From Pocillopora damicornis (lineage: Eukaryota), in contig NW_020843537.1 of the NCBI RefSeq assembly GCF_003704095.1, positions 62,001 through 126,000 of the forward strand: a stretch of 64,000 nucleotides of DNA. The letters are read 5' to 3'. The number at the start of each line of letters is the position of its first letter. Position 1 is the stretch's first letter. A model generated the notes under the pieces. The model was not told the origin of the DNA and did not search any database. It worked only from the letters and a program-made list of their open reading frames with translations. Both the position numbers and the translations under genes were made by a program. Shown here piece after piece: positions 3,321 to 54,229 of this stretch.

Positions 3321-5792
3321 NNNNNNNNNNNNNNNNNNNNNNNNNNNNNNNNNNNNNNNNNNNNNNNNNNNNNNNNNNNNNNNNNNNNNNNNNNNNNNNN
3401 NNNNNNNNNNNNNNNNNNNNGTTGTATAATTTTCAATGGCAATTAAACAGTTCGATACCTTTTCCCAACGAGCACGCAGTTCTTTTGTGTAACTGTTTAN
3501 NNNNNNNNNCCTCAGGCAAAAAACCCGAATCGAAAATGAGCTTTCGATCAATTGCTTCTCTACGAGCTTTTATCCATGAATACGGTTTGCAATGATCCGC
3601 AGTACTTGGCAGGGTTTAGAGGCGTGATAGTTTCTCCTTNNNNNNNNNNNNNNNNNNNNNNNNNNNNNNNNNNNNNNNNNNNNNNNNNNNNNNNNNNNNN
3701 NNNNNNNNNNNNNNNNNNNNNNNNNNNNNNNNNNNNNNNNNNNNNNNNNNNNNNNNNNNNNNNNNNNNNNNNNNNNNNNNNNNNNNNNNNNNNNNNNNNN
3801 NNNNNNNNNNNNNNNNNNNNNNNNNNNNNNNNNNNNNNNNNNNNNNNNNNNNNNNNNNNNNNNNNNNNNNNNNNNNNNNNNNNNNNNNNNNNNNNNNNNN
3901 NNNNNNNNNNNNNNNNNNNNNNNNNNNNNNNNNNNNNNNNNNNNNNNNNNNNNNNNNNNNNNNNNNNNNNNNNNNNNNNNNNNNNNNNNNNNNNNNNNNN
4001 NNNNNNNNNNNNNNNNNNNNNNNNNNNNNNNNNNNNNNNTTTGAAAATTGACTACGTGTTTAACAACGTGAGCAAATTTATTCTCTTCCAGTTTGTTCTG
4101 TTGCCTAAACAAAAACTGCATGTTCCTGCTTTCATTTCATTCAAAGAATCAGAGAAAGNNNNNNNNNNNNNNNNNNNNNNNNNNNNNNNNNNNNNNNNNN
4201 NNNNNNNNNNNNNNNNNNNNNNNNNNNNNNNNNNNNNNNNNNNNNNNNNNNNNNNNNNNNNNNNNNNNNNNNNNNNNNNNNNNNNNNNNNNNNNNNNNNN
4301 NNNNNNNNNNNNNNNNNNNNNNNNNNNNNNNNNNNNNNNNNNNNNNNNNNNNNNNNNNNNNNNNNNNNNNNNNNNNNGTAGCTTTTTCGTCGTTTGGTTA
4401 TAATTTGACAGGTTTAGAACGACCGAAACCACTTTCAGCCACTCTGTCTCGAAACTTTTTCCTTTTCACNNNNNNNNNNATCAAAGGCAGAAAAAATGGA
4501 TGTTAACTGCAATGAGTTCGCTGAAAACGCTGAGAGTTTGCTTCGTAAGCACTTTCAGTATGGATGTACTNNNNNNNNNNNNNNNNNNNNNNNNNNNNNN
4601 NNNNNNNNNNNNNNNNNNNNNNNNNNNNNNNNNNNNNNNNNNNNNNNNNNNNNNNNNNNNNNNNNNNNNNTAAATCAGAGTTCCCTTCGTCTTTAAGTAA
4701 TATTTGTGTCGATTTGATAACTACGAGCTCAAATTGGATGTAAAATGGAAAGGTTCACACAATTTATCTCGAGACATGACTCNNNNNNNNNNAAAGAATT
4801 GTACAAGTGTTTGTTATTTCTTTGAATAAAATGACCGAGGTACCACACACATAATGTTTAATAATAACTAATATTGTATCGATTAACCAATAGCTATTAA
4901 ATAAAGGTATGAACTGCACTTTCTAGGGGTACAGAGGCTTGATAACTCTATANNNNNNNNNNNNNNNNNNNNNNNNNNNNNNNNNNNNNNNNNNNNNNNN
5001 NNNNNNNNNNNNNNNNNNNNNNNNNNNNNNNNNNNNNNNNNNNNNNNNNNNNNNNNNNNNNNNNNNNNNNNNNNNNNNNNNNNNNNNNNNNNNNNNNNNN
5101 NNNNNNNNNNNNNNNNNNNNNNNNNNNNNNNNNNNNNNNNNNNNNNNNNNNNNNNNNNNNNNNNNNNNNNNNNNNNNNNNNNNNNNNNNNNNNNNNNNNN
5201 NNNNNNNNNNNNNNNNNNNNNNNNNNNNNNNNNNNNNNNNNNNNNNNNNNNNNNNNNNNNNNNNNNNNNNNNNNNNNNNNNNNNNNNNNNNNNNNNNNNN
5301 NNNNNNNNNNNNNNNNNNNNNNNNNNNNNNNNNNNNNNNNNNNNNNNNNNNNNNNNNNNNNNNNNNNNNNNNNNNNNNNNNNNNNNNNNNNNNNNNNNNN
5401 NNNNNNNNNNNNNNNNNNNNNNNNNNNNNNNNNNNNNNNNNNNNNNNNNNNNNNNNNNNNNNNNNNNNNNNNNNNNNNNNNNNNNNNNNNNNNTAAGGTC
5501 ACTATTACTGATAGCGAATCGTAATAAAAATTCTTTTCGATCTTAAAGCTCTGAAGCAGGGGTTTGGTTCACTGCGTTATATTCTTGCATGAGTGCATCA
5601 GAAATNNNNNNNNNNNNNNAAGTTTAGTAGATTACTTTTAAGAATATCACGAGATTCTTAAATTCTGGAGTTTCCTCTATCTACAAATCATCTTGTTCAG
5701 TGCGTGACTGCTGGACAGTAAATTGTTAACTTAGAAACGGTACACTCCAAATACACTGTCTTGAAAAATTTAGAAATACAAANNNNNNNNNN

Positions 5793-7195: not shown

Positions 7196-9136
7196 CGAAC
7201 TTCTAAAAACTAAATGCCGGCAGTCTTTCAGCCTTCGTTATGTTATTAACATGTGGTGATACTAGAGATTGTTGACATATTACACTTATTATCCAACTGC
7301 AGAAAGTAGATTACAAATGACGCGCAAAAAGAATAAAAATATCCTATGATATCGTAGGGTTATTTGGACAGTTGGCTATTTTGTACTGTGAAAAACCTGT
7401 TTAACAAGTCGGCTGCGCGCGCTACGCTTCTCTATCCGCTTTGCTTTTCCTGCCTCATTAGAAATGAACAGAAAGACTTAGCAGAAAGCAGTTGGCAGAA
7501 AGCAGTTGTGTAGTATGGCTGAGTATTTTTACTCGTTGTCTGTTTTTTGACTCTTAGGTCAAAGTACAGCACAACCCGTAAAAATACTCAGCGATACTAC
7601 ACACAAAAACGTCTAATAAAATATATGTATTCATACTAACATGATTCCGAGTGCAATTCAGAGTTTATAGGCACGAGTAAATCTTTCAAAGACAACACTT
7701 CACTTATTACACTTTACTTATTGCACCAAATTTCAAGAGAAATCATTTTATTACTTGTTAACAATGTACATGAAAAAGACAGAATTTTTAAGCGTCCGTG
7801 CATTCGTATTATAACTTTGCACTCGTGATGCATGAGAATGCACTCATTTTCAGCCAAGTAGAAGCGCGTAATTGTTTCATGTACATTATTACGGAAACGA
7901 GGCAATGAAGAAAACAAAATTAACCCGCGTAGCTTGTGGGACGAAGAAATATTTCAGTCCTTTCTGTATCAAAGGTATATTTGCGACATTGGACTACAAA
8001 GATCTTTTAGAGAGCAAGCAAGCTATCATCGATGCACCAGCGAGGGTCTTAGCACGAAGCTTTCAAGAACATCACCTTTCTTTTCAGTTGAAAAAATTAC
8101 CTCACACCTCATTTAATATGGACATACCGTGTGCGGACAGAAATTGAGGTACATTCAAGACAGTGTATTTGGAGTGTACCGTTTCTAAGTGAAACAATTT
8201 ACTGTTCAGCAGACACGCACTTAACAAGATGATTTGTAGATAGAGGAAACTCCAGAATTAAAGAATCTCGTGAGATTCTTAAAAGTAATCTACTGAACTC
8301 CACACTTGAATATAATTTCTGATGCACTCGTGCAAGAATTCAACGCAGTGAACCAAACCCCTGCTTCAGAGTTTTAGGAACGAAAAGAATCTTTATTACG
8401 ATTCGCTATCAGTAATGGTGACCTTAAATATTTCAGCAAAAATAGACTTAATACAATTTATTCTAAAAAGTTTCAAACTATTCACCAGAGTTAGTTAGAT
8501 GCAGTGTAAACCTTTGCCCTTTAGGTACAACTGCTGATGCGCAACTGAAACGTCCCCTACTTTATTCTGAGGGGTGGGGTGAGGGTTAAGAAACGAGGTT
8601 GCACTATTGACTATAATGTCTCATCTCCCATTTACAATTAACAAAATTCAAGCAACTAAGAACTGATTTACTCTTCTCAGTTTAAGAATTAACAATACTC
8701 TGGGCTTATATCGCACTGATATAACATTTCGATCGGTTCTCAATGTATGGTAAACGGAACAATAGTTTTCTCTCGAGACTAGGCTGAGTGATTTGAATAC
8801 TCTTTGCGTGTTTCATTAGCCTTCAGAGTGAGTTATCAAGCCTCTATTCCTCTAGAGAGTGCAGTTCATACCTTTATTTAATAGCTATTCGTTAATCGAT
8901 ACAATAGAAGTTATTATTAAACATTATGTGTGTGGTACCTCAGTCATTTTATTCTAAGAAATAACAAACACTTGTACAATTCTTTGAAAGAATAACAGAG
9001 TCATGTCTCGAGATAAATTGCGTGAACCTGTCATTTTACACCCAGTTTGAGCTCTTATTTATCAAATCCAGATAAATATTCCTCAAAGACAAAGGGAATT
9101 CTGATTTAGTCCACATTCCTCAACTAGGGCGCACTC
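7196..9136. repeat. Duplicated intergenic spacer between convergent CKMPF paralogs
   Basis: High-identity full or partial copies at 4671-5780, 9764-10882, 12199-12709, 13641-13811, 16689-18009, 18130-19789, 20191-21493 and 23253-24280 (shared strings such as gaggggtggggtgagggttaagaaacgagg and gtaccacacacataatg). Confidence 0.9.
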
Positions 9137-14766: not shown

Positions 14767-15767
14767 TGTCCGCGCTACAGAGTCTTCGAGTGCACACTTG
14801 AGATCTTCGATAACGAATGAACATGTTTCGAATAAGCTCCAGGCTTTTTCATTTGATGTTTTGAAAGTGAAAGTGCCAACAAAGCAGAAACAATCTGCAT
14901 GTTAGGGAAAGTGTTGACTACACTTATTCACTGAAAATTTGAGAAAAAGATGTTGACGATCAACATTATTAATTATATATGCTTCTATTGTTTGAATTTT
15001 AAAGAACTCCTCATAGGGAGGTAGTCAGAATGAATATTTCAGCTCGTCGACATGTAATGAACATGTTTCGAATAAGCTCCACTAAGATGTGAAATATTGA
15101 CTGGGACGATATTTATCTTTCCTATACTTTAACGAATTCTTTNNNNNNNNNNNNNNNNNNNNNNNNNNNNNNNNNNNNNNNNNNNNNNNNNNNNNNNNNN
15201 NNNNNNNNNNNNNNNNNNNNNNNNNNNNNNNNNNNNNNNNNNCTTTTTAAACTTACCTAAGAACTGGACGCATATTTCCGTTCTCTCAGGCTTTCTGTTG
15301 GAACGAAACTTTGTTTTTTGTGCCTGGATTTGCCAAAGTTTTTTATAAAATTGTATTTCATTTGTGTCAGGGGGCGTAGATGGGAAATTATTGGTTTATC
15401 CTGTAACTCTTTTCTCTCTTGATATGCCAGAGATGCAGGTTTCTCACATATGTAAACAGAGAACTGAAAAAAGCAATTTTTATGCGGTGTGAAGACCCTT
15501 TTCTGGGGTGGGGTGGGGGTAGGTAGTGCCAAATATTATTGGCTATTATTTCAATATTTATTACCAGCCACTTTTTCCACTTTTTTTAGCTTTTCTGGAG
15601 GACGAGGCAATATGGCCACGTTTGATCACAATTCACTGGAACATTACATATAGCACCTTTAATTTTCCTCTGTTATTCTTTTGGCATGACAATTATGTTT
15701 TCAATGCGCTGGACTATTATTATTTGTCCTAGTTTTTGGAGATCTTCCAGCTCAGTTGGGATGTCGT

Positions 15768-16670
15768 CTACATATAAGTTGTTAACTGACATGGAAAACT
15801 GCCTTGATTGACTTTAGAGTGACAAGTCTTACAGATAAACTCTTTTCCATCAAATGACAATAGTGTATTAAAAATATCCTGAGAAGGGTGACTAGTGTTA
15901 TTGAGTTTTAAGACAGATTTTTTATAAAGTGTTCTGTTTAAAACACATGTACCTTGAGGCTGCCCTCTTCCATACAAATCTCTAGCGTGAGAAACAAATA
16001 TTTTGAACCCCATATTCAAAGATTAGTACAATAGATTGCAACAACAATACACCTTTCTGTTAATATGAAATTGGTGTAGTTTTCAGATATGAGCGACTCA
16101 AAGACTCTTCGTAAAGAGGTTCAGCAGTTTCTTGGTGAACAGTACCAGAGTAGCTTTCACTGTATTCCAGTTGATAATCAGTATCAAACACATTTAATGC
16201 TGTGGATAATTCTGACTGCATTAAAAACACCTGTCTGGCTAATCGTGACAAACTTGATTTCCAATTTTCGTTGACAAACTGATTTCCAACATTCATTATT
16301 TGAAAACTCATTGCAACACATTGTTGTCCTGCATTTTGTCCAAAAACTAACTCGTTACCTTGACAATATGGAGCTGCTATTGTTTTGTTAGGGTCAACAT
16401 ATATTAGAGGACCAGGATCTTTTTCTATGTCTGTACTTAATTTATAGTTGCAATAATTTGCTATATGATCCTCACTCTTGCAAGAAAACAATGTCAATTA
16501 TGGGCTGGCACGATATTTTATCTTTCTTATACTTTGACGAATTCTTTCACGACAGTTTAAATTGAACGTCATCTTATTTACTAGCTTTATAGCATTTACA
16601 TAACAGTAAAATGTAGATGACATGGGTATACATGAAAGAATACGTGCATAGACAAGTTCACTAACCCTTC
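15768..16670 (-). mobile_element. Degraded Helitron-like ORF fragment: 2A-like motif, herpes-tegument-type cysteine protease-like domain, Cys-rich region
   Basis: LSTDIEKDPGP; YCQGNELVFGQNAGQQCVAMS; NRTLYKKSV...SFDGKEFICKTCHSKV, resembling the Cys-rich region upstream of Rep in animal Helitrons; broken by stops and deletions. Confidence 0.65.
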
Positions 16671-18109
16671 TGAATGCCGTTTTCTTGAGAGTGCGTAACA
16701 AGTGAGGAATGTGGACTAAATCAGAGTTCCTTTCGTCTTTGAGCTATATTTACCTGGATCAGATAAAAATGAGCTTCAACTAAGAGGAAAATGGATAGGC
16801 TCACGCAATTTATCTCGAGACATGACTTTGTTATTCTTTCAAACAATTGTACAAGTAGTCTTATTTCCTAGAATAAAATGACTGAGGTACCACACACATA
16901 ATGGTTGATTATAACTTCTATTGTATCGATTAACCAATAGCTATTAAATAAAGGTATAAACTGCACTCTCTAGGGGTATAAAGGCTAATGAAACACGCAA
17001 AGAGTTTTCAAATCACTCAGCCTATACTCGGGAGAAAAATGTTGTTCCGTTTACCAAGCATCAAGAACCGATCGAAATGTTATATCAATGCTATATGAGC
17101 CTGGAGTATTGTTAATACTTGAAATGAGAAGAGTAAGTCAGTTCTTAGTTGCTTTATTTTGCTGAGTGTAAAATTCCATAGTTATAGAATGAGTGATTTG
17201 AAAGTAATTCTTTAGTTTGTGGAGGTTCAAACGTTTATGTTGCCAAAGTAATTCTCTGTTAATATACATCAACCATTGCTTCCGGACATCAACTAAGTCA
17301 TAAGTTGTATTATCATGTTGAGTTCAAAGTCTGCCTAGGCGTAGTTTCCAAGCTCCTCGTCCGTGAGGTGCTCTCAAACTTTTGCAAACTCAGAGAGAAG
17401 CGTCTCCTTTGGCAGATTGTTTAAAAAAATTTGTAATAAAACAATTACTTTATTAATTTTCCACATAATGTTAAGGACGGGAAAATGTTTGGCTCTCGGT
17501 CATGATTTCGAGTCAAATATTGTCCCACCTGGCTCTTCCACTCAGTCATTAAGTAAATTGGAAGATGAGACGTTATAGTCAATATTGCATCCCCTTTTCT
17601 TGACCCTCACCCCACCCCTCGGGATGAAGTGTGGGACTTTCAGTTGCGCACTAGCAGTTGTACTTAAAGGGCAAAAGTTTACTAACACTGCATCTAACTA
17701 AGTCTGGCGTACATTTTTAGAACTTTAGAACAGATTGGTTTAGGTCGATTTTTAGAACTCTGAAGCAGGGGTTTGGTTCTCTGCGTTAAATTCTAGCATG
17801 AGTTCACAAGTGTGAAGTTCAGTATATTAATTTTAAGAATCTCATGAGATTTAAAAATACTCAGTGATACTACACACCAAAACGTCTAATAAGTTATTTA
17901 TTATCCAGCTCCTTTCTGATAAGTCTTTCTGCTCATGTCTTATAAGGCTGGAAAGGCAAAGCGGATAGAGAAGCGTAGCGCGCGCAATCGACTGGTTAAA
18001 CAGGTTTTTNNNNNNNNNNNNNNNNNNNNNNNNNNNNNNNNNNNNNNNNNNNNNNNNNNNNNNNNNNNNNNNNNNNNNNNNNNNNNNNNNNNNNNNNNNN
18101 NNNNNNNNN

Positions 18110-35490: not shown

Positions 35491-37458
35491 NNNNNNNNNN
35501 NNNNNNNNNNNNNNNNNNNNNNNNNNNNNNNNNNNNNNNNNNNNNNNNNNNNNNNNNNNNNNNNNNNNNNNNNNNNNNNNNNNNNNNNNNTATTTCGGTC
35601 ATTTCTTCCTGCCCCGCTCGTCGCCCGTGATGTAGTAACTCCCGACCTTTTCTAGGAAAACATTAGTCACGAAAGTGAAATGATAACATCATGCGTTGCA
35701 TTTTGAGTAAAGGTACAACTTTGGGTCACGTAAGCGAACATGTTGAACAAAGCAGGAATGTACAGCTCAATGAAAAAGAAATTTGCGGCGTAAAATCAAG
35801 GAAAGGCGTCCAGTTTTTAACTAAAGCGGAGGTGATAAGGTGGCTGAAGTGTAGAATGCAAACATTGAGGCGACCTAACCTTGAAAAGACCTAAAGACCA
35901 TGTCATAAGTTGGTAGGTTGCTGTGCAACAAACTGCCTCAACCCTGAAGTTAAAGTGGGGTTCTTCCTGCTTGTGACCAAAAGAATCCAATAAACTACTG
36001 CTGGGATAAAAACCTACAGGCGTTTCCAGAAGGCAAAGTGCCTGAACAAAGATGGAAAGAGTTTGAAAATACGCTGCGCAAACTACTTTGTGTAGGTCTA
36101 GGAAAAGCAAACGCTTTTTGTACAGTATTACAACATTAGCATCAAGAGGGGAAGTGTCAGGCTCATCTCTCGATTATTATGAGTAAGCAAACAGAAAAAA
36201 AAGGAGGAAATTTTCCTAATAGAGTACAGCACTCCTTATTCAAATTCTTGGGGGACACAATACCGTCGACTGCAAAAACCTTCCCTCGCTAAGCTTAAGC
36301 TGTTTTTAGAACTGTCAACGCTGTGTTTGAGAGTTTCCGGAAGAACTCACGTTTCTTTATACAGTAAGAGCAAAACCACGCGCGACAAAACAGCAATCCT
36401 CAATACGCCTGAAGCGGAAAGACTGCTACACTATATATTGAAATAAAAAATTATGAATTAGAAAAAAAGGTTAAACCAGTTTCATTCTCAGTCAATGTTA
36501 AAATTAAATTAATTCATGACCTTCTAAAATCTCTCGACATACAACTGACGTTTTTAAGGAATTTTCCCATATTCTCGTGTTTATCAAACATCATCAATTG
36601 TGATTGGTTGAAAAAAATACAAGAAAGTCATGACGATCCTACAGCCTTGAATACGATATAACAAATACAGAACCCGCAATTTTGTTTCCCAGCATTTAGT
36701 CACACAATGATAGTTCCTATCTGTTTGTCCGAGAATGTCACGCAATGGAAAAATTTTTCAGACCATATCGTTAATCTCCTATAGTATTCCGACGCTTTGA
36801 TATTATGAAACGATTCCATCAAATGATTCCATTGAATAATTCAATCTAATGATTTCACAAAACAATTTAATCAAATTATTTGCATCAAATAATTTCATCA
36901 AATGATTTCCATAAAATTATTTCCATAATATGGAAGTAGAGTGGAGTTGGCGTGTGTGAGGACATTTTGTAAAAATGGTCCCGAACCGTCAACTACTAGC
37001 GAAACCACGCGCGACAAAAAAGCAATCTGCAGTACGCAGGAAAAAAGGTGGCAAGGATTTTTTTTCACAAATTTGATGAAAAATAAACTCCAAAATAATG
37101 TACATTTAATACTGAATTAATTAATTAATTCAAATCTGAACACTTGTTGAAACTGCACTCGTTGTTTGAGTTTCTCGTGAGCATAAGGACGAAAAGACGC
37201 ACGTACCAGCAGCATGAAACAAACACTAACGGCCGCTATTGGGCTGATGGAAGCATTTCTTGATGATGCCAAATGGGTATATTGTATTGCACTTAACTGT
37301 CATGATTCTTACGGAAAGCCTCTCCTTTTCAGTCTTAAGTGCGTTTCAAGTTCACAGAACGTCAATATATTCCACGCCTTCAGATCTACCGCATCAGCCA
37401 AAACAATGCTGCTGATTATAAAGTGAAAGAAGTGTTCATTTGTTTTTGACGCTGAGAG

Positions 37459-37466
37459 TATAAATA
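37459..37466 (+). promoter_or_regulatory. Candidate TATA box of the complete copy
   Basis: TATAAATA 76 nt upstream of ATG 37535. Confidence 0.4.
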
Positions 37467-37534
37467 AAGCTGATAGACTACTAAGGAAAAAGGGTGTTTT
37501 GCCATGTAAATCTGCTGAGCATTGTTTGTACAAA

Positions 37535-39145
37535 ATGAGCAGTACATTGATAGAGGTGTTTGGCCATATCGTTTTCAGTTTTACACGAAACGTGACAGAG
37601 CATTATAACCCAACAGAACCTGATTTTACGGCAGAATCTTTTGGCTACGATCCTCTACAGAGCACAGGTCTGGAATGGAATTACCTTCCGGTTGATGAAC
37701 TTATTTATCAAGAACACGAGGACGATGAAGTCACAAGCCCGGATTATTTCGCGGCAAGCAGTCTTAACGTGAGAGTTCTAAACGCCTGTTTACCTGATGA
37801 AAAGCAAGAAATACAAGACGAACAGCAAAATAAAGATAGAGCCATGGCTTGGAAGAGACTCAGACCATCCGCCATCTGCACAGTTTGTAGGTCAATGTAC
37901 ATTGGGGCTTTGATTTCACCGCTGTCTGCTACCATCATAGGTTCACTTTATATGCTTATCTCCTACATCTCCTACCAAACTGAACTCAACTGCCAATTTC
38001 ACTCACACGATTCCATTCCACTGAAAATACAATGGATTCGAACATTGTCTCAAGTGATAGCGTGCGTTTTCCTTTACATGTGGTTCTTTATAGCTACGCT
38101 TTTCCTTTTCCGACCATACCAGTTAAAAGGGGTTAAGAGAAAATTAATCTTCGTTGTCTTTCTGATGTTTTGTTTGGATACACTTTATCGTGTACTCCTC
38201 CAAGCCTATGGAATATCTCATTCGAAGATATCAACATTAAAAAGGCTGCCACTTAACTTTCTATTTTTGATCAGTATATGTTGGCAAGTTTATATTCTAA
38301 CTAATCATTTCCGCATACTGTCCAGAGGGCGGCGCCCAAACTTATTTTTTAAAATACTGTTGCCAAGCTTAGTTACTTTCCTTCTTGGCATCCTCATAAC
38401 TTCGTTTATTTACCCCGTGTACAACAAGCAAAACGGGAGAGGAAAATTAGTAATTGCCCTCTTTTCGCCCCTCAGTGGGGTTATCTTCAAAGCGATCTCC
38501 CGAATTTGCGTTCAGCGGTTATGGAACATAACTCATCCGGGATATTCATATGTCCTATTGGTGTCTTGGTATTTTGGCTCGGCGATTATTTTCCGAGTTT
38601 TGCAAGCAGATTTAGACAGTTTGCAGTCCATTGCCATTCTTGGGATAGTCCACGGCTTTGCAGAAGTCATAGAACGCAGCACCATGGTTTTTATTGATCA
38701 CATTTTTCATGCTATTTGGAAAAAAAAATCAGTTCCTTGGGGAAACTTCCGCACTCCTCGCCGTGAGAGACTGATGGCTGATGTCGCCATCATAAGCATG
38801 TTATATGAATCAGCTGGTATAGTGTCTGTTAACGGTGGTTTGTACTTGTATCAACTCATTTACTTACGAAGCAGTTCACTTTTAAAGCTACTGCAGGAGT
38901 TTGCTTTTCGCACCTCAGTTCAGCTGGTCATTGAATGGTTTTTCACTAGCGTATCTCTCGCGATCGAGACTCACTATCAGAACATGGCTGTCATGGCTGT
39001 TTGGCGAAAAAGATGGAAAAGACACTTTTTGGTAGGGGTAGTAAATGCCGTGCCTTTAGCTTTGTGGACAAGCAATTATCTCATAGAGATTGTAAATGGG
39101 CGACTTAATGAGGCTGATCAGCCATGTAAAATGCCGTTTACCTGA
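37535..39145 (+). CDS. CKMPF family, complete intronless gene, 536 aa multi-pass membrane protein
   Basis: Intact ORF; ATG chosen by homology with other copies (MSSTLIEVFGH); ~10-11 hydrophobic segments. Confidence 0.92.
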   Translation: MSSTLIEVFGHIVFSFTRNVTEHYNPTEPDFTAESFGYDPLQSTGLEWNYLPVDELIYQEHEDDEVTSPDYFAASSLNVRVLNACLPDEKQEIQDEQQNKDRAMAWKRLRPSAICTVCRSMYIGALISPLSATIIGSLYMLISYISYQTELNCQFHSHDSIPLKIQWIRTLSQVIACVFLYMWFFIATLFLFRPYQLKGVKRKLIFVVFLMFCLDTLYRVLLQAYGISHSKISTLKRLPLNFLFLISICWQVYILTNHFRILSRGRRPNLFFKILLPSLVTFLLGILITSFIYPVYNKQNGRGKLVIALFSPLSGVIFKAISRICVQRLWNITHPGYSYVLLVSWYFGSAIIFRVLQADLDSLQSIAILGIVHGFAEVIERSTMVFIDHIFHAIWKKKSVPWGNFRTPRRERLMADVAIISMLYESAGIVSVNGGLYLYQLIYLRSSSLLKLLQEFAFRTSVQLVIEWFFTSVSLAIETHYQNMAVMAVWRKRWKRHFLVGVVNAVPLALWTSNYLIEIVNGRLNEADQPCKMPFT

Positions 39146-39683: not shown

Positions 39684-41479
39684 AATGCAACCAATAAAAC
39701 GCAGCTTTCTGGCTAGTTATTACGTGATCACTTACATTCTGCCGCACTAAACGCCTCTTATCATTTTGTTTTAACACTGAATTCTCATTGCGAGCTTTTT
39801 AATATTCAGACTTTCGCTAAGATTGTAGCTATTTTCATTTGTTGAGATTTAACAGCATTTCATCAAAATATTCATCAAAAATTGATTTCAGAATAAACTG
39901 ATAGAAATTAGAATCACAAATTGATTTCAGAATAAACTGTGTAGTTGATAAAAGTTAGAAACGAGTGAATGATTTTTATTTATCATAACAGAGAATCAGA
40001 AGAAATAAATAAACTTGGGTTTGACATGATATAACTGACCTCTGGAACTGCAGAAAAGGCAAAAATTGTCCAACAAAAAATTATGAAAATGAAATGCTGG
40101 GTTAAAAGAAAATCAAAGAGGAATTAAATATGAGAAAACGCATAGCGAAATTGCTTGTTATGGTACCAATTTTCGGATGCATATCAGTTCCGATTCTGTT
40201 TATGTCATCTCCAATTCTTCTGGATACGTGGGATCCAAACCTGTAGGTAAAATATCTCATTGAAAGTAGGACACATGTGGGGAGTTAGCTACTTCACCTA
40301 TCACAAAAAGATGAACTCATGGTTCTGTACTAACTGGAGCGAAGGATACACAATCGATGAGCTCATCTCAGTGAGGGTCATTTTTCGCAAGAAATATGGA
40401 ATCCAGTCGCTCGTCAACGACTTCTATCTATTTACAATATCACAATCTCATCGTCAATTCACATTCCGCCAGAGATAATGCGGTTAATTTACAGCCTAAG
40501 CTTGGAGAACCGTGAACGCTGTTCAGGTGGTAACTATGCGTAACAAAACAGAAAAAATAAATGTGTATGGATCTAACAAAACACATTTCAATTCATTTTG
40601 AAAACTGGCAAGGGAAAATTGAAACAACTACATACGTGTACAATCAAATTTATCGAAAAATTCTGAGCAAGGCAAGTTTTCAACGAAAATTCCTCAAGAA
40701 CTAGTACCTGAATTCTATCTGAATATCAATTGAGACCCACAGAAAAGCGCCGAAATCCTTCTTGAGAGTTCAACTTAATTTACTCAGATGAGGATCGAAA
40801 GTGTTCTACTTATAAAATACTCATACGTTTAGACTGAAAGACTGAAAGGAACGGCTGAGAGACGGCTGAGTGACGCACTTCCTAATGACGTGATACGCAA
40901 TTTGCAGGACCAGATTTAGAGAGCTGTACACGTTGGAGCTGAAGTGATACTATATAAGGATAAGATATCAGATTTACAGGGAAAGCCTGAAGGATGTACA
41001 AGAAGAATGAAAGATAATAAACATATGAATGAAAGACTGACACGGAATGATGATTTCTTCCCCGAGGTCAATAGCAGTAAACTGATCGAGGAGTTCAATT
41101 AAATGAAGTACACCCAAGGATCTTATTTCATTCGCATTTATGGTTTCGATCCTCTACACGGCAAAGCTCGATCCACCTTATGTTGAGAAACCTCAAGATA
41201 AAAAAGCTACAGCCACTTCATTTCATATCGATTTGTGCGACTCAAAGCGTGACTGAGCCGTGAAGATTTAGAACTGGTCTTCCTTCACTGAATTTGTTCG
41301 GGCACTACAAAAGATTACAGAGCCGCTAGGCAAGAAAATCAGAAACAATATCTCATTTTCGAAATTAGCAACAGTTGAGGCAACACATTTGGCGGCTCAA
41401 GGCATACATTACTCCAAACGGCTGTGAAAGAGGAAACGAATATCTCTTAGAAATTCGTCCGTGTAACTTCACCAAGAAA

Positions 41480-43060
41480 ATGCGTATCATAGAAATACTA
41501 AGTCACATCATGTACAGTTTTACACGAAGTGTGGCAGACCATTACAGCCCAGAAGATTCAGAATTTACGGCAGAATCTTCTGACTACGTTCCTCTACAAA
41601 GCACAGGTCTAGAATGGAACCATCAACCGGTTGATGAGCTTATTTATCAAGAATACAGCCACTCTGATAACGGTTTTACTATAAGGGTGCTGGACGCTTG
41701 TTCACCAGAGAAGAACGAAGAAATTCCAGAAGATCAGCAAGATGAAGACAGAGCGATGGCTTGGAAGCGACTTAGACCATCTTCACTTCGCACAGTTCGT
41801 AAATCAATGTACTTCGGTGCACTGATTTCAATACTGACGGCTATGGTCATAGGCTCGTTGTATTGTTTGATCAGTTACGTATCTTTTCAAACCATGTTTA
41901 ACTGCCAATTTCACCAAAAGAAGTCCATCCCCGTGAAAATTCAATGGATGAGAACATTATCTGATGCTGCAAGCTGTGGTTTTATTTACATGTGGTTCCT
42001 TGTGAATATCTTTTTTCTTTTTTTACCGCATCAGCTTCAAGGGCTGAGGAGGAAACTTATTTTCGGTACTTTTATGCTATATTGTTTGGACGCACTTTAT
42101 CGTGTAATCCTTCAGAGCTCGGGAATATCCCATTCTAGGCTAACCAAAATACAAATGATTCCACTCATCGTTTTATTTCTTGTTAGCTTATGTTGGCAAG
42201 GTTATCAATTATGGAATCGCTTCCAAGTATTGTCACGAGGACGTATCTTTTTTTTTGTGCAAATTGCAGCACCGGGCTTCTTTACTTTTCTCATTGGTAT
42301 CGTCACGGTGTATTTCACTTACCCAATGTACAACGAAGAAAATGAAAACAGAAAACTTCTTATTGCAATCTTTGCTCCCCTCTCTGGACTCCTTCTCAAA
42401 GTCATCGTGCGAATTTGCATTCAATCCTCATGGAACATCACACATCCGGGATATACCTACATCTTGTTCGTGCCTCTTTATTTCGGCTCAGCGATTTTGT
42501 TTCGAGTAATGCAGGCAGAACTTGAAAACATCAGCGCAATCACTATTCTGGGAATAATCCACGGGGCTGCAGAAGTTCTAGAACGAAGCACCATGGTTGT
42601 CATCGATCACATATGTCATGTTGTTTTGAAAAGAAGAGCAGTATCTTGGGGAAGTTTTCGTACTCCTCGCCGTGAGAGACTAATGGCTGATATCGCTATC
42701 ATTAGTATGCTGTATGAATCAACTGCTATAGTGTCTGTTAACGGTGTTCTGTACTTGCACAAATTTATTTACTTAAAGGAAAACTCTCTTTCAACGTTAT
42801 TCCAGAGGTTTTTGGTGGCGAGCTCAGTCCAGCTAGTGATTGAGTGGTTTTTCAACAGCATCTCTCTGGCAATTGAGACTTATCATCAGAACATAGCTGT
42901 CATGGCTGTTTGGCAACGAAAATGGAAAAGACACGTTTTGGTGGCGGTGATCAACGTGATCCCTTTAGCATTATGTTCTACACTACCAATTATTCAATTT
43001 ATGCACGGGCAGCTTGCTAAGTCCCGAACTGACCAGCCATGCAAAATGCCATTTTCTTAG
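41480..43060 (+). CDS. CKMPF family, complete intronless gene, 526 aa
   Basis: Intact ORF MRIIEILSHIMYSFTR...DQPCKMPFS-TAG. Confidence 0.92.
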   Translation: MRIIEILSHIMYSFTRSVADHYSPEDSEFTAESSDYVPLQSTGLEWNHQPVDELIYQEYSHSDNGFTIRVLDACSPEKNEEIPEDQQDEDRAMAWKRLRPSSLRTVRKSMYFGALISILTAMVIGSLYCLISYVSFQTMFNCQFHQKKSIPVKIQWMRTLSDAASCGFIYMWFLVNIFFLFLPHQLQGLRRKLIFGTFMLYCLDALYRVILQSSGISHSRLTKIQMIPLIVLFLVSLCWQGYQLWNRFQVLSRGRIFFFVQIAAPGFFTFLIGIVTVYFTYPMYNEENENRKLLIAIFAPLSGLLLKVIVRICIQSSWNITHPGYTYILFVPLYFGSAILFRVMQAELENISAITILGIIHGAAEVLERSTMVVIDHICHVVLKRRAVSWGSFRTPRRERLMADIAIISMLYESTAIVSVNGVLYLHKFIYLKENSLSTLFQRFLVASSVQLVIEWFFNSISLAIETYHQNIAVMAVWQRKWKRHVLVAVINVIPLALCSTLPIIQFMHGQLAKSRTDQPCKMPFS

Positions 43061-51367: not shown

Positions 51368-51882
51368 CGCCCCCTGAAATCAAATAAGTATTCACACTTA
51401 TGTTTAAGAAAAAATATGGCGGATTCAGTAGTTTGGAACTCCCGCCTGCCGCGCGAAAAGGTGGTAAACAGGGTACGGAGGGTGGGGATACTAACTTTTA
51501 AGCAGGAATCATTATATTTCTTCTTTAAAACATGACATGAAAATTTGGTAATTTATTCTAAATAATGGAAGGAGTTCCGGCGTAACCTCTATAATTCAGA
51601 AGTTTCATTTGAACATCTGGAAATTCGGTATGGAAGTTCCTACTCAGCCTGTCCTGGAAAGTGAGTTTTTAGTGTTTTTCAAACGAGGCCACTACATAAA
51701 CATGGCGGTATCATGATGAATGAAAGGTCAGTAAGACGAAGGAAAACCAATCTATTACAAGGCAGCTCCATGTAATTGCTAAAATTTTTGTCTTCTTCTT
51801 CTTAAAGATAAACGATGAAACGGCTGTTGGCTTTTACGAAACGTCTTAAGTTTCCCGGCAAGTGTGCAAAACAGCTGAAAGC
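51368..51882. promoter_or_regulatory. Probable bidirectional promoter (HAUS2 / F-box gene)
   Basis: ~515 bp between divergent start codons; YY1-like AANATGGCGG motifs at ~51413 and ~51699. Confidence 0.5.
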
Positions 51883-53164
51883 ATGACTTCACTTGAGCTG
51901 GAAAACTACCGTCTTTCAGATGCATTTCATACCTCGTTACCTTCGGAACTGTGGTTGGCTATTTTAAAGAACTTAAATCCTGTTTCCGACGATCTCTTAT
52001 CTCTAAGTTTAGTATGTAAGAAGTGGCGAGAACTTATCTTTTCAAACCCCGATCCTGCTCTTTGGCAAAACATTACACTGGCGAATTTCAGAAACTGCAG
52101 CTACGAGAACTTAACCCTCGTGAGGTTCCGAAACATTCTTAAAAGATTTGGGTATCTTTTGAAAGTCATTCGACTACAGAAATGCCACGAATTGTTCACT
52201 GAGATGCTGCTCGCTCATGTTTCTTCTCTGACAGCTTTGACTAGCCTTGAAATAACTGGAATGGTGTGGTCGAAAAAGCTACTCAGAATGTTAAGATGTC
52301 CAAAATCCCTCAGGAATGTATTTTTGGAGGCCTCCTTAACATCAGATGGGCTCTTCAACCATGATGATTTGCAGTACACAGTAGAAAATTTTCCACAAGT
52401 GAAAAACTTTGGCTTGCAATTTTCAGTTATCAAGGCAGATTCTGTAGCCACAATTAAAGGTGTTGTGTCTTCCAAGTACAGTCACCACATAACTTGTCTT
52501 TTGCTGGAAAGGGTAAAAATGGAGTGTACCGATCTGCAAGATGCGGTGAAGAAATTAAAAGGACTGAGAAAATTTGGTTATGGCAGTGATCAAATTTATG
52601 GTCTTCCATCTCGGCATCTTCTGCAGTTAAACTCTAAATCATTGCAGGAAGTTGAGCTTTTCCAAGTAGGGGATTTTTCAAAGTTTCATCTTGTATTTCC
52701 ATGCCTGAAAAAACTAACCATGAATGCATGCACATCTGTTGGGGAACTGAACATTGAGGCACCAGGGTTAAGAACTCTGTATCTCTCACTATGTGTTGAA
52801 GTGCACAACTTCAGAGGAATTTCAGCAAGCTTCTTGCATGAGATGAAAGTCAGAAGATGCCATGCACTCATCCAGGCTGAACTTATTGGTCTCTTGATAA
52901 AAAATCCAGATATCAAGGTGTTAGAGCTTGAGGTGTACTGGCCAACTTTACGACTTGATCAAATTTCTACTCCATCACTTGAAAACATTACTATATTTGA
53001 TAATGGTGAGCGTTTGACATCTGTTGATGTCCGTTGTCCCAAACTTCAACAGCTCATTATCAAGAAGTCAATGACAAGATCAACCATCTTGAAAGCGGTG
53101 TCAATATTGTCGCACAATGTCAAAAAGGTTGTCCTAAATGATGTACCCTACCTTCAGAAAGTCA
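51883..53164 (+). CDS. F-box / leucine-rich-repeat protein (3' end in gap)
   Basis: F-box LPSELWLAILKNL...LSLVCKKWRELI followed by LxxLxL-type repeats (LKKLTMNACTSV, LRTLYLSLC, CPKLQQLII); in-frame TAA at 51847 places the first ATG at 51883. Confidence 0.85.
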
Positions 53165-54229
53165 NNNNNNNNNNNNNNNNNNNNNNNNNNNNNNNNNNNN
53201 NNNNNNNNNNNNNNNNNNNNNNNNNNNNNNNNNNNNNNNNNNNNNNNNNNNNNNNNNNNNNNNNCCTTCAAGTGAGGTATCTTTTTTAAAATTTCATTTC
53301 ATTTTTTTTAATTATGAAGTTATAAGAGTACAAGAAATGACCAAATCTGGTGAGGAAGCCCATGGGAAATCACAGGGCTTTGCCTTATGAACTCCCACTA
53401 GCAAATATTATAGCCTCAATTTTTCATATGATTCTTTTCCATGGGTTTAATTTTTTTTTAAGTGAGAAACAGTCCAATAGTCCTCTGAGGGCTGGATCAT
53501 TTTCTTCATTTTCCTTTTTCTCCTTTGTTTTCTTTCAAAATGATTAAAATGCTTTACAATTTTACATCAAAATGGTGAAACCTAACTTCTAGGGAACTTC
53601 AACAGTCTCCTTTTCAACCTGAAATTTTCTTATGGCTGGTAAGTATGGTCTTTTATTGAAAGAGGAAATGAGTCATACATTGAAATTTTTGGACTTAACT
53701 AGTGAAAATTCACAACAAGATTTATGTTGATATGTGATTGAAATTAAGATGTAATAGGTAGTACAGAAGCATATTTTCATGTCATCTCCCACAAAGGACA
53801 ATAAAAATGACTTTCTGTTTTTTAGAAAATGTGTGTTGCCAACTGGAAAATAGCTGTCATTTCTATCCAGCTTGGATTTTGCAAATAATGATAATTAAAT
53901 TAAATTTCATTTCGACTGTAAATTAAGCATTTAATTTATTATCAATGATATTTAATCAATTGGAGCATTCAATTAATCTTTTAAATTTTATTTATGTCAG
54001 GTTTCAAAAAATAGGATAATTAAAACCACCATATAAATTCTATTGTATATACTGTTATTCAAGAACCATTGAAAATAAAGTTGTGAATCCAAAGTTGAAT
54101 TGCCTTATGTGGTATAACTTTCAGCAAGCCATTGCCCCTCAGACGGTGTACTATTTGATTTACCACCATGAACTTAGCCAGTCAGTCAGTCATTTAGATA
54201 GTTTTTTAGGGTGATTTTAGACAGTGGTG

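Follow-up and report, generated by a model that had tools for sequence, protein, structure and literature searches.

Does a decayed piece of transposon in the genome of the coral Pocillopora damicornis descend from an element that divides its protein as some viruses do, by having ribosomes skip a single peptide bond? The question is raised by a stop-to-stop frame of 145 codons (16060-16497, minus strand) in the window, that is, the whole stretch of 64,000 nucleotides analyzed here. The original prediction took this frame for a Helitron remnant in which a 2A-like (StopGo) motif stands directly before a deubiquitinase of the herpesvirus tegument type. StopGo sequences have been described in RNA viruses and retroelements and in a handful of cellular genes. 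Their mechanism, release at Gly and restart at Pro, is set out in sections of PMC12846837. We hold it to be rather probable that the window contains a dead Helentron fragment in whose intact relatives the motif makes some ribosomes skip the Gly-Pro bond, yielding leader and enzyme-transposase as two proteins.

The remnant is real and larger than predicted. It runs from 15262 to 16672 on the minus strand and is a dead, internally deleted HLE2/Helentron copy, truncated at its 5′ side, with its 3′ end kept and with no Rep, helicase or endonuclease. At 16672 the likeness to the DNA of sister copies stops, and from 16673 the sequence is that of a host tandem gene. From this edge inward the remnant comprises, all on the minus strand, the end of a leader (16432-16672, with stop codons and a 21-base deletion), the decayed octapeptide DIEKDPGP (16408-16431; the family form is D[IV]ExNPGP), a broken viral tegument-like deubiquitinase (Herpes_teg_N/C76; 15939-16407) whose domain identity is taken from relatives, a Cys-rich/DUF6570 fragment with stops and frameshifts (15593-15938, located by tblastn with residues 563-686 of the related protein P0011) and a 3′ terminal region (15262-15596) in which a sub-terminal inverted repeat (15281-15295), a hairpin (15268-15281) and the end itself are all slightly decayed. 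A second, 56-base leader piece on the same strand (15087-15142) is 86% like 16491-16547 and adjoins a masked gap. In tblastn with P0011, the remnant covered residues 13-253 and 563-686 only; DUF6570 lies at 610-738 of that protein (Pfam) and its Rep region begins at 891. At the junction between deubiquitinase and DUF6570, roughly 310-330 codons have been deleted from the window copy.

The octapeptide at 16408-16431 (within the longer KLSTDIEKDPGP, 16408-16443) and the GQQC cysteine at 16318-16320 (within YCQGNELVFGQNAGQQCVAMS, 16306-16368) both lie where they had been placed, in a pseudogene that is dead in both motif and deubiquitinase. The Cys is retained; after the catalytic helix, 19 residues have been lost and 5 gained, two frameshifts are present, and Asp-x-His has become Val-x-His (15987-15995) in a frame different from that of the Cys. 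The 2A core is broken by an Asp in place of the Asn; according to sections of PMC12846837, that Asn is essential in FMDV 2A and Asp is absent from the natural motif variants given there. The Asp codon (GAT) is one base from the Asn codon of sister copies, which is AAT or AAC in 16 of the 19 copies with the motif located (window included), from 26 loci examined. A six-frame scan of the window yielded D[IV]Ex[ND]PGP once, and 100 shuffles yielded it 0 times. Because the window peptide alone gave no Pfam match at E<=10, the family assignment of its deubiquitinase rests on relatives. As a query, the same peptide matched 104 places in its own genome. At 47-79% identity it also matched 31 longer proteins, a majority of which have a precomputed Herpes_teg_N domain; the 3′ terminal region returned 52 matches in that genome, most sharing one end point. 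Transcript evidence on the window copy amounted to pieces of 39-76 bases, explicable by other copies.

The remnant sits inside a tandem array (window 655-47761) of more than ten copies of an unrelated host gene in both orientations, many of them broken. The array gene is intron-poor and encodes a hydrophobic, multi-pass-like protein of roughly 530 residues (for example at 37427-39145 and 41369-43060, both plus strand), and two of the copies gave no meaningful match against Pfam. Elsewhere in the window, 51850-53289 (plus strand) is an exon of an F-box protein (F-box-like, E 1e-10) with Leu-rich repeats recognized by eye.

The nature of the parent element is apparent from intact relatives of 2,400-2,600 residues, in which Herpes_teg_N, DUF6570, Helitron_like_N and PIF1, with a weak endonuclease match, all lie in one frame. 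Rep and PIF1 helicase share a frame in all six relatives scanned, and Exo_endo_phos matched in three of six proteins at E 1e-5 to 1e-3, under the curated cut-offs. The linkage to Rep and helicase that had been assumed for the parent is thus borne out, intact copies joining the deubiquitinase domain in one frame with Rep, PIF1 helicase and a putative endonuclease. DUF6570, present in the relatives and as a fragment in the window, is described in sections of PMC11417382 as a marker of HLE2, whose definition there also includes inverted repeats near the ends and a 3′ hairpin. In sister copies, an inverted repeat of 12 bases lies close to either end and a hairpin marks the 3′ end: 5′ ACTCGGGCTTTC occurs in seven of eight ends among those listed, and the 3′ ends (n=12) carry a GAAAGCCCGAGT-type arm and an ACGCA-AATA-TGCGT-type hairpin, with decay. 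On a possible insertion between T and T, the element ends show 5′ ends that mostly start TT and 3′ ends that read AGTT. The window copy retains the 3′ end only. A near-complete, frameshifted element in the same genome (L021) keeps an intact motif together with Rep and PIF1 helicase; RNA-library contigs from two studies covered 20-28 of its 30 bins at >=90%, contigs alone being no proof of transcription, and two such contigs span its motif without a joint.

Several further features of these elements were observed. At the 5′ ends of L002:727, L012:801, L014:501 and others, a second, partial copy of the terminal repeat lies inverted about 12 bases downstream and could form a 5′ hairpin. In L021, contigs skip three stretches (1114-1938, 2338-2684 and 4405-4761) bounded by GT..AG when read antisense to the transposase frame, a sign that antisense transcripts may be spliced. 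Near the 5′ part of the same element, 7645-8232 showed very high contig depth in all four RNA libraries, which is probably due to a shared repeat or to non-autonomous derivatives.

The deubiquitinase of the family is a viral tegument-like deubiquitinase (VTD; Herpes_teg_N/C76), confirmed in relatives by Pfam and by fold; the label C76 is taken from the original prediction and from the source name of one match. Herpes_teg_N scored above its cut-off in P0011 and P0021 and in five of six further proteins scanned. A model of P0133 (94 sequences, pLDDT 72; an earlier one from 16 sequences, pLDDT 39, was set aside) matched the VTD of a zebrafish Helitron (8ADD: E 8e-11, Z 18.1, rmsd 2.8, 188 aligned) and cytomegalovirus M48 (2J7Q: Z 16.9, rmsd 3.0, 184 aligned, 13% identity), the best non-VTD fold reaching Z 7.9. 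GxQC is present in 21 of 22 intact relatives and FDSH in all 22. A C76 profile match had been named as a check, and the relatives do match Herpes_teg_N and share the fold of the tegument deubiquitinases of Helitrons and cytomegalovirus. A sequence search of solved structures (P0011; alignment A3) gave no VTD match, only the Helraiser transposase (E 4.5e-6); it was Pfam and the fold that made the link to VTDs. We rejected an endogenous herpesvirus as the source, given the transposon ends, the linkage to Rep and the 13% identity to M48.

Such an enzyme is already known from Helentrons and is not new. The herpes-type deubiquitinase of Helentrons was described, assayed and crystallized in 2022 (Erven et al. 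2022, PMC9741609); sections of that paper record it from vertebrate, insect, cnidarian and mollusc Helentrons, report activity for zebrafish domains and suggest a role in preventing degradation of transposition proteins. Herpes_teg_N was catalogued in 2024 in HLE2 subgroup b, as listed in sections of PMC11417382. We also observed, in P0003 (about 365-520), P0011 (about 285-440) and many relatives, a second, degenerate VTD-like repeat without the catalytic motif, followed by charged tandem repeats. In the N-terminal 500 residues of P0304, P0312 and P0314, a UCH/USP-like domain stands in place of the VTD (Pfam UCH_1, weak); three deubiquitinase classes (VTD, UCH/USP-like and, in P0306, OTU) share one slot in close relatives.

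How far the octapeptide belongs to the family was assessed in three sets selected without using the motif: long deubiquitinase proteins, representatives of 50% clusters of the deubiquitinase, and proteins chosen by the Rep domain alone. Among the long proteins, D[IV]ExNPGP is present in 21 of 22, the remaining one beginning inside the domain. The cluster representatives (the best 150 of 1,525) gave 53 informative domain starts, meaning those with enough upstream sequence, in 52 proteins: 30 had a strict motif, 11 a near one and 12 none. Of these 12, most look like fragments that are short or frameshifted, and two of the domains come from the distant P0122. Selection on Rep returned 52 motifs of the form (D/G)(I/V)ExNPGP, spread over 50 of 100 proteins and none of them beyond residue 466, where 0.0013 would be expected by chance. 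Ninety-nine of these proteins had enough Rep for a tree; 49 carry the motif, 5 have a deubiquitinase preceded by 25 residues or more but no strict motif, 7 are cut just ahead of the deubiquitinase, and 38 are without an N-terminus or deubiquitinase start. P0321, which has no strict motif, carries a rare Thr variant. P0335, P0361, P0364 and P0369 have a deubiquitinase and enough N-terminus, yet no motif, and that of P0304 is broken, so that the motif is dispensable in some lineages. The named carriers are corals and a hydrozoan and the sole insect record is without the motif, the taxonomic range being uncertain.

The NPGP expected of the family consensus is accordingly found in relatives as D[IV]ExNPGP. 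Across the 52 motifs E, N, P, G and P are invariant, I and V alternate, the fourth place is free and Gly replaces Asp in two. This variation parallels that of viral StopGo sequences, Gly for Asp included, and the motif codons differ synonymously among copies. As judged from these comparisons, the octapeptide is under selection in the Helentron clade. Such selection would be accounted for equally well by an attenuator, where ribosomes would stall or leave the message and not resume efficiently, so that transposase is throttled instead of two proteins being made. Self-restraint by 2A-like motifs has indeed been proposed for retrotransposons in sections of PMC3708506 and PMC13405545. Nevertheless, the final Pro, which restart requires, is fixed in 52 of 52 motifs, and we regard an attenuator as unlikely.

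The motif is a separate module outside the enzyme fold. In the P0133 model it forms a low-confidence loop (residues 63-70) after a helix, the match to 8ADD starts at 74, and from protein to protein the distance to the catalytic motif ranges over 20-29 residues. The motif also precedes the OTU domain of P0306 and the UCH-like domain of P0312 (UCH_1 at E 9e-4, under the cut-off, on the sister P0304). These properties bear on a post-translational role as protease site, binding motif or linker, with 2A likeness retained by descent from a 2A. The octapeptide always stands directly ahead of a cysteine-protease domain, as such a role would have it; yet the motif, besides lying outside the fold, is indifferent to protease class, VTD domains without it exist (P0122), its substitutions obey the rules of the StopGo ribosome tunnel, and upstream conservation runs out near -24, about as far back as the exit tunnel reaches. 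We therefore consider a post-translational role improbable.

Upstream of the motif, three unlike tracts were distinguished, for which we coined the labels H-type (the window's own), P-type and L-type, the last being Leu-rich (classical LLLLSG). The H-type tract has conserved Y/F-24, K-23, H-19, N-16 and L-10, with little past -25; in the window copy, where the tract stands ahead of the motif in the leader end, the His at -19 occupies 16465-16467. His-19 is found in 34 of 37 rows, of which 3 are P-type, and Leu-10 is conserved. Within -14 to -10 the hydrophobic positions are F/L-12 and L-10 only, and a helix is present in the P0133 model. The tract aligns with an active cypovirus 2A at N-16, K-11 and L-10. 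Among 16 L-type proteins most are Leu-rich upstream, and their branch includes Hydractinia and Clytia records. A quick Rep tree of 67 of the 99 rows (the 32 without an N-terminus omitted; SH-aLRT only, midpoint root) united all 49 carriers within a group of 60 rows (95) and the H-types within one of 36 rows (97), the latter also including P- and L-type cases, and these mixed types suggest that the leader has been swapped repeatedly. In P0046 and P0318, residues 31-108 contain tandem 2A-like motifs, a P-type motif with the first deubiquitinase residues and then an H-type motif with the full deubiquitinase, which looks like a recombined leader.

Whether such sequences skip has in part been addressed by a published screen of 20-mers in a human-cell reporter, described in sections of PMC13405545. 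Family-type 20-mers number at least 17 among the matches listed, and none was called skipping: 13 were non-skipping and 4 fall-off. By type there were seven H (six non-skipping, one fall-off), nine P (six and three; one with a broken core) and one L (non-skipping). Three are identical to P0125, P0293 (2,626 residues) and P0346, all non-skipping; the other 14 were assigned by pattern or, in one case, by its Acropora source protein, and the non-skipping TYNPVCLNKLSTDIEKNPGP was omitted from the 17, its source being unclear. For comparison, 14 peptides skipped among the first 27 of 42 Leu-rich ones ending LLLSGDVELNPGP, and set against 0 of 17 this makes strong context-free skipping by the Helentron family unlikely. 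A supplement row of the screen contains a coral protein that has the same motif, is labelled PIF1 and matches a VTD structure; its curated annotation is helicase alone. Family strings looked for in the supplements of PMC12338488 and PMC12846837 gave, among the matches listed, nothing but unrelated DIEKNPGP/KLCGDIE rows.

The rival explanations draw differently on these results. The four fall-off calls, the sole non-null ones for the family, would suit an attenuator; however, such calls are common on motif-free peptides too and so give skipping no support, and 0 of 17 family peptides fell into the reduced-protein class. The 13 non-skipping 20-mers would agree with a post-translational role. A vestige, active in a Leu-rich ancestor and idle now in coral H-type elements including the window's family, would find support in the H-type peptides, which have no Leu run and of which six of seven were non-skipping; inactive 2A-like motifs are also common in retrotransposons according to sections of PMC3708506. 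Against this, H-type elements whose Rep is only 61-92% identical to that of P0032 have drifted in the flanking linker and yet retain the octapeptide, along with His-19 and Leu-10; a vestige thus seems to us very improbable.

Skipping in context continues to be our preferred reading, and the design of the screen leaves room for it. Its 20-mers begin at -19 and so do not contain the conserved -24 and -23 of the coral H-type; its classes are model-based, the model refitting 86% of its training samples, and some entries are engineered repairs. In the screen a Leu run at -14 to -10 drives skipping, and H-type tracts are without one. A truncated P2A reached only about 8% in sections of PMC12338488, and the motif alone is insufficient for an active 2A in those of PMC3708506. 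Given that 0 of 17 skipped, though as 20-mers tested in a human-cell reporter and classed by a model, the sequence is filed as 2A-like and not as a functional 2A. For the coral H-type motif to function, an upstream context of about 25 residues, or else a cnidarian ribosome, may be required. It is tempting to speculate that cnidarian Helentrons are the first StopGo-using DNA transposons, parting an often membrane-type leader from a transposase capped by its deubiquitinase, and hold a new coral long-context class (Y-K-x3-H-x2-N...L-x2-DxExNPGP) invisible to 20-residue screens, a possibility to which we give slightly less than even credence. As for virus-like polyprotein processing with a C76-like deubiquitinase in the parent element, the original prediction stands in its deubiquitinase and in its family motif, but the published 20-mers did not skip and a herpes-type deubiquitinase is no novelty.

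The leader gives a clue to what skipping might achieve. A transmembrane-like stretch occurs in all 11 H-type (coral) leaders of at least 270 residues and in 9 of 16 L-type leaders; a comparably hydrophobic stretch occurs in only 2 of 50 downstream parts. H-type leaders called at under 270 residues, whose N-termini may be incomplete, make up 21 of the 32 scored, and 20 of these have no hydrophobic stretch; nor has that of the window's nearest relatives (P0003). A protein-atlas search with the leader gave no match, and the leader is consequently assigned to no family. A P-type leader held in common with retrotransposons was considered and rejected, no other cargo being seen among its eight matches in the same genome: three run into the same deubiquitinase, one has the motif and a frameshift after it, and four are without a motif by the pattern used.

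In our model, one long frame would encode leader, 2A-like motif, deubiquitinase, DUF6570, Rep, helicase and endonuclease in that order. The leader would come off at Gly and translation would resume at Pro, four residues ahead of the deubiquitinase fold, and skipping would be partial. It would separate the leader from a deubiquitinase-Rep-helicase-endonuclease protein and would not free the deubiquitinase, which, because the motif lies ahead of it, would stay on the transposase and might guard it against ubiquitin-driven degradation. With leaders often transmembrane-like and downstream parts rarely hydrophobic, the likely use would be to free a nuclear transposase from an often membrane-type leader and to set its dose. 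Taken together, the sequence comparisons show a selected 2A-like element in a DNA transposon, one that likely causes skipping.

The window copy and the deubiquitinase are themselves ordinary; the wider meaning lies in the motif. A literature search on Helitrons, Helentrons or DNA transposons with 2A, outside which lay Repbase Reports and subscription journals, found no report, and the word "Helitron" has 0 occurrences across the main texts of the 2A papers PMC12338488, PMC13405545, PMC12846837, PMC3708506 and bioRxiv 10.64898/2026.09.24.754024. A 2A-like element in a clade of DNA transposons is thus apparently unreported. A Helentron clade keeping the motif through swaps of leader and deubiquitinase would show rolling-circle transposases made as virus-like polyproteins, and skipping would explain how a nuclear enzyme can come from a frame beginning with membrane helices. 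Furthermore, strong conservation set against a negative 20-mer screen offers a sharp and cheap test of the upstream context, or the host ribosome, that StopGo needs.

Among known systems, the closest are the VTD-bearing Helentrons (zebrafish DrT1/DrT2; PDB 8ADD; PMC9741609) and HLE2 subgroup b of HELIANO (PMC11417382). They likewise carry Herpes_teg_N/VTD with Cys and Asp-x-His in frame with DUF6570, Rep, PIF1 and endonuclease (the last a weak match in our relatives), 8ADD is the fold match, and sections of those papers mention cnidarian examples; unlike them, the window copy is catalytically dead. NPGP and skipping have 0 occurrences in the main text of PMC9741609, and no 2A is listed in the sections of PMC11417382 on HLE2. 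The 2A-like sequences of APE-type non-LTR retrotransposons (L1Tc, Ingi, CR1, L2, Rex1, Crack), as given in sections of Odon et al. 2013 (PMC3708506), resemble ours in placing D(V/I)ExNPGP near the start of a single long frame ahead of catalytic domains, in mixed activity and in the same proposed uses, leader separation and dose limit; by contrast, the Helentron carrier is a rolling-circle DNA transposon, its next domain is a deubiquitinase and the H-type tract is not Leu-rich. Viral class A StopGo/2A sequences (FMDV F2A, cypovirus 2A), according to sections of PMC12846837 and PMC12338488, share the core octapeptide, the tolerated variants, K-L at -11/-10 and a helix before the motif, and the Leu-rich type recurs in the Helentron branch that contains hydrozoans. 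Viral activity has, however, been measured in that literature whereas the Helentron family 20-mers did not skip, and the H-type adds Y/F-24, K-23 and H-19 and is polar at -13 where F2A has Leu. Finally, herpesvirus large tegument deubiquitinases (C76: M48, UL36, BPLF1) share the fold and the order of the active site but, at 13% identity, differ from an enzyme that is transposon-borne and for which nothing points to a viral insertion. If skipping occurs, the likeness would extend to a deubiquitinase at the N-terminus of a very large protein, where the herpesvirus tegument enzyme also sits.
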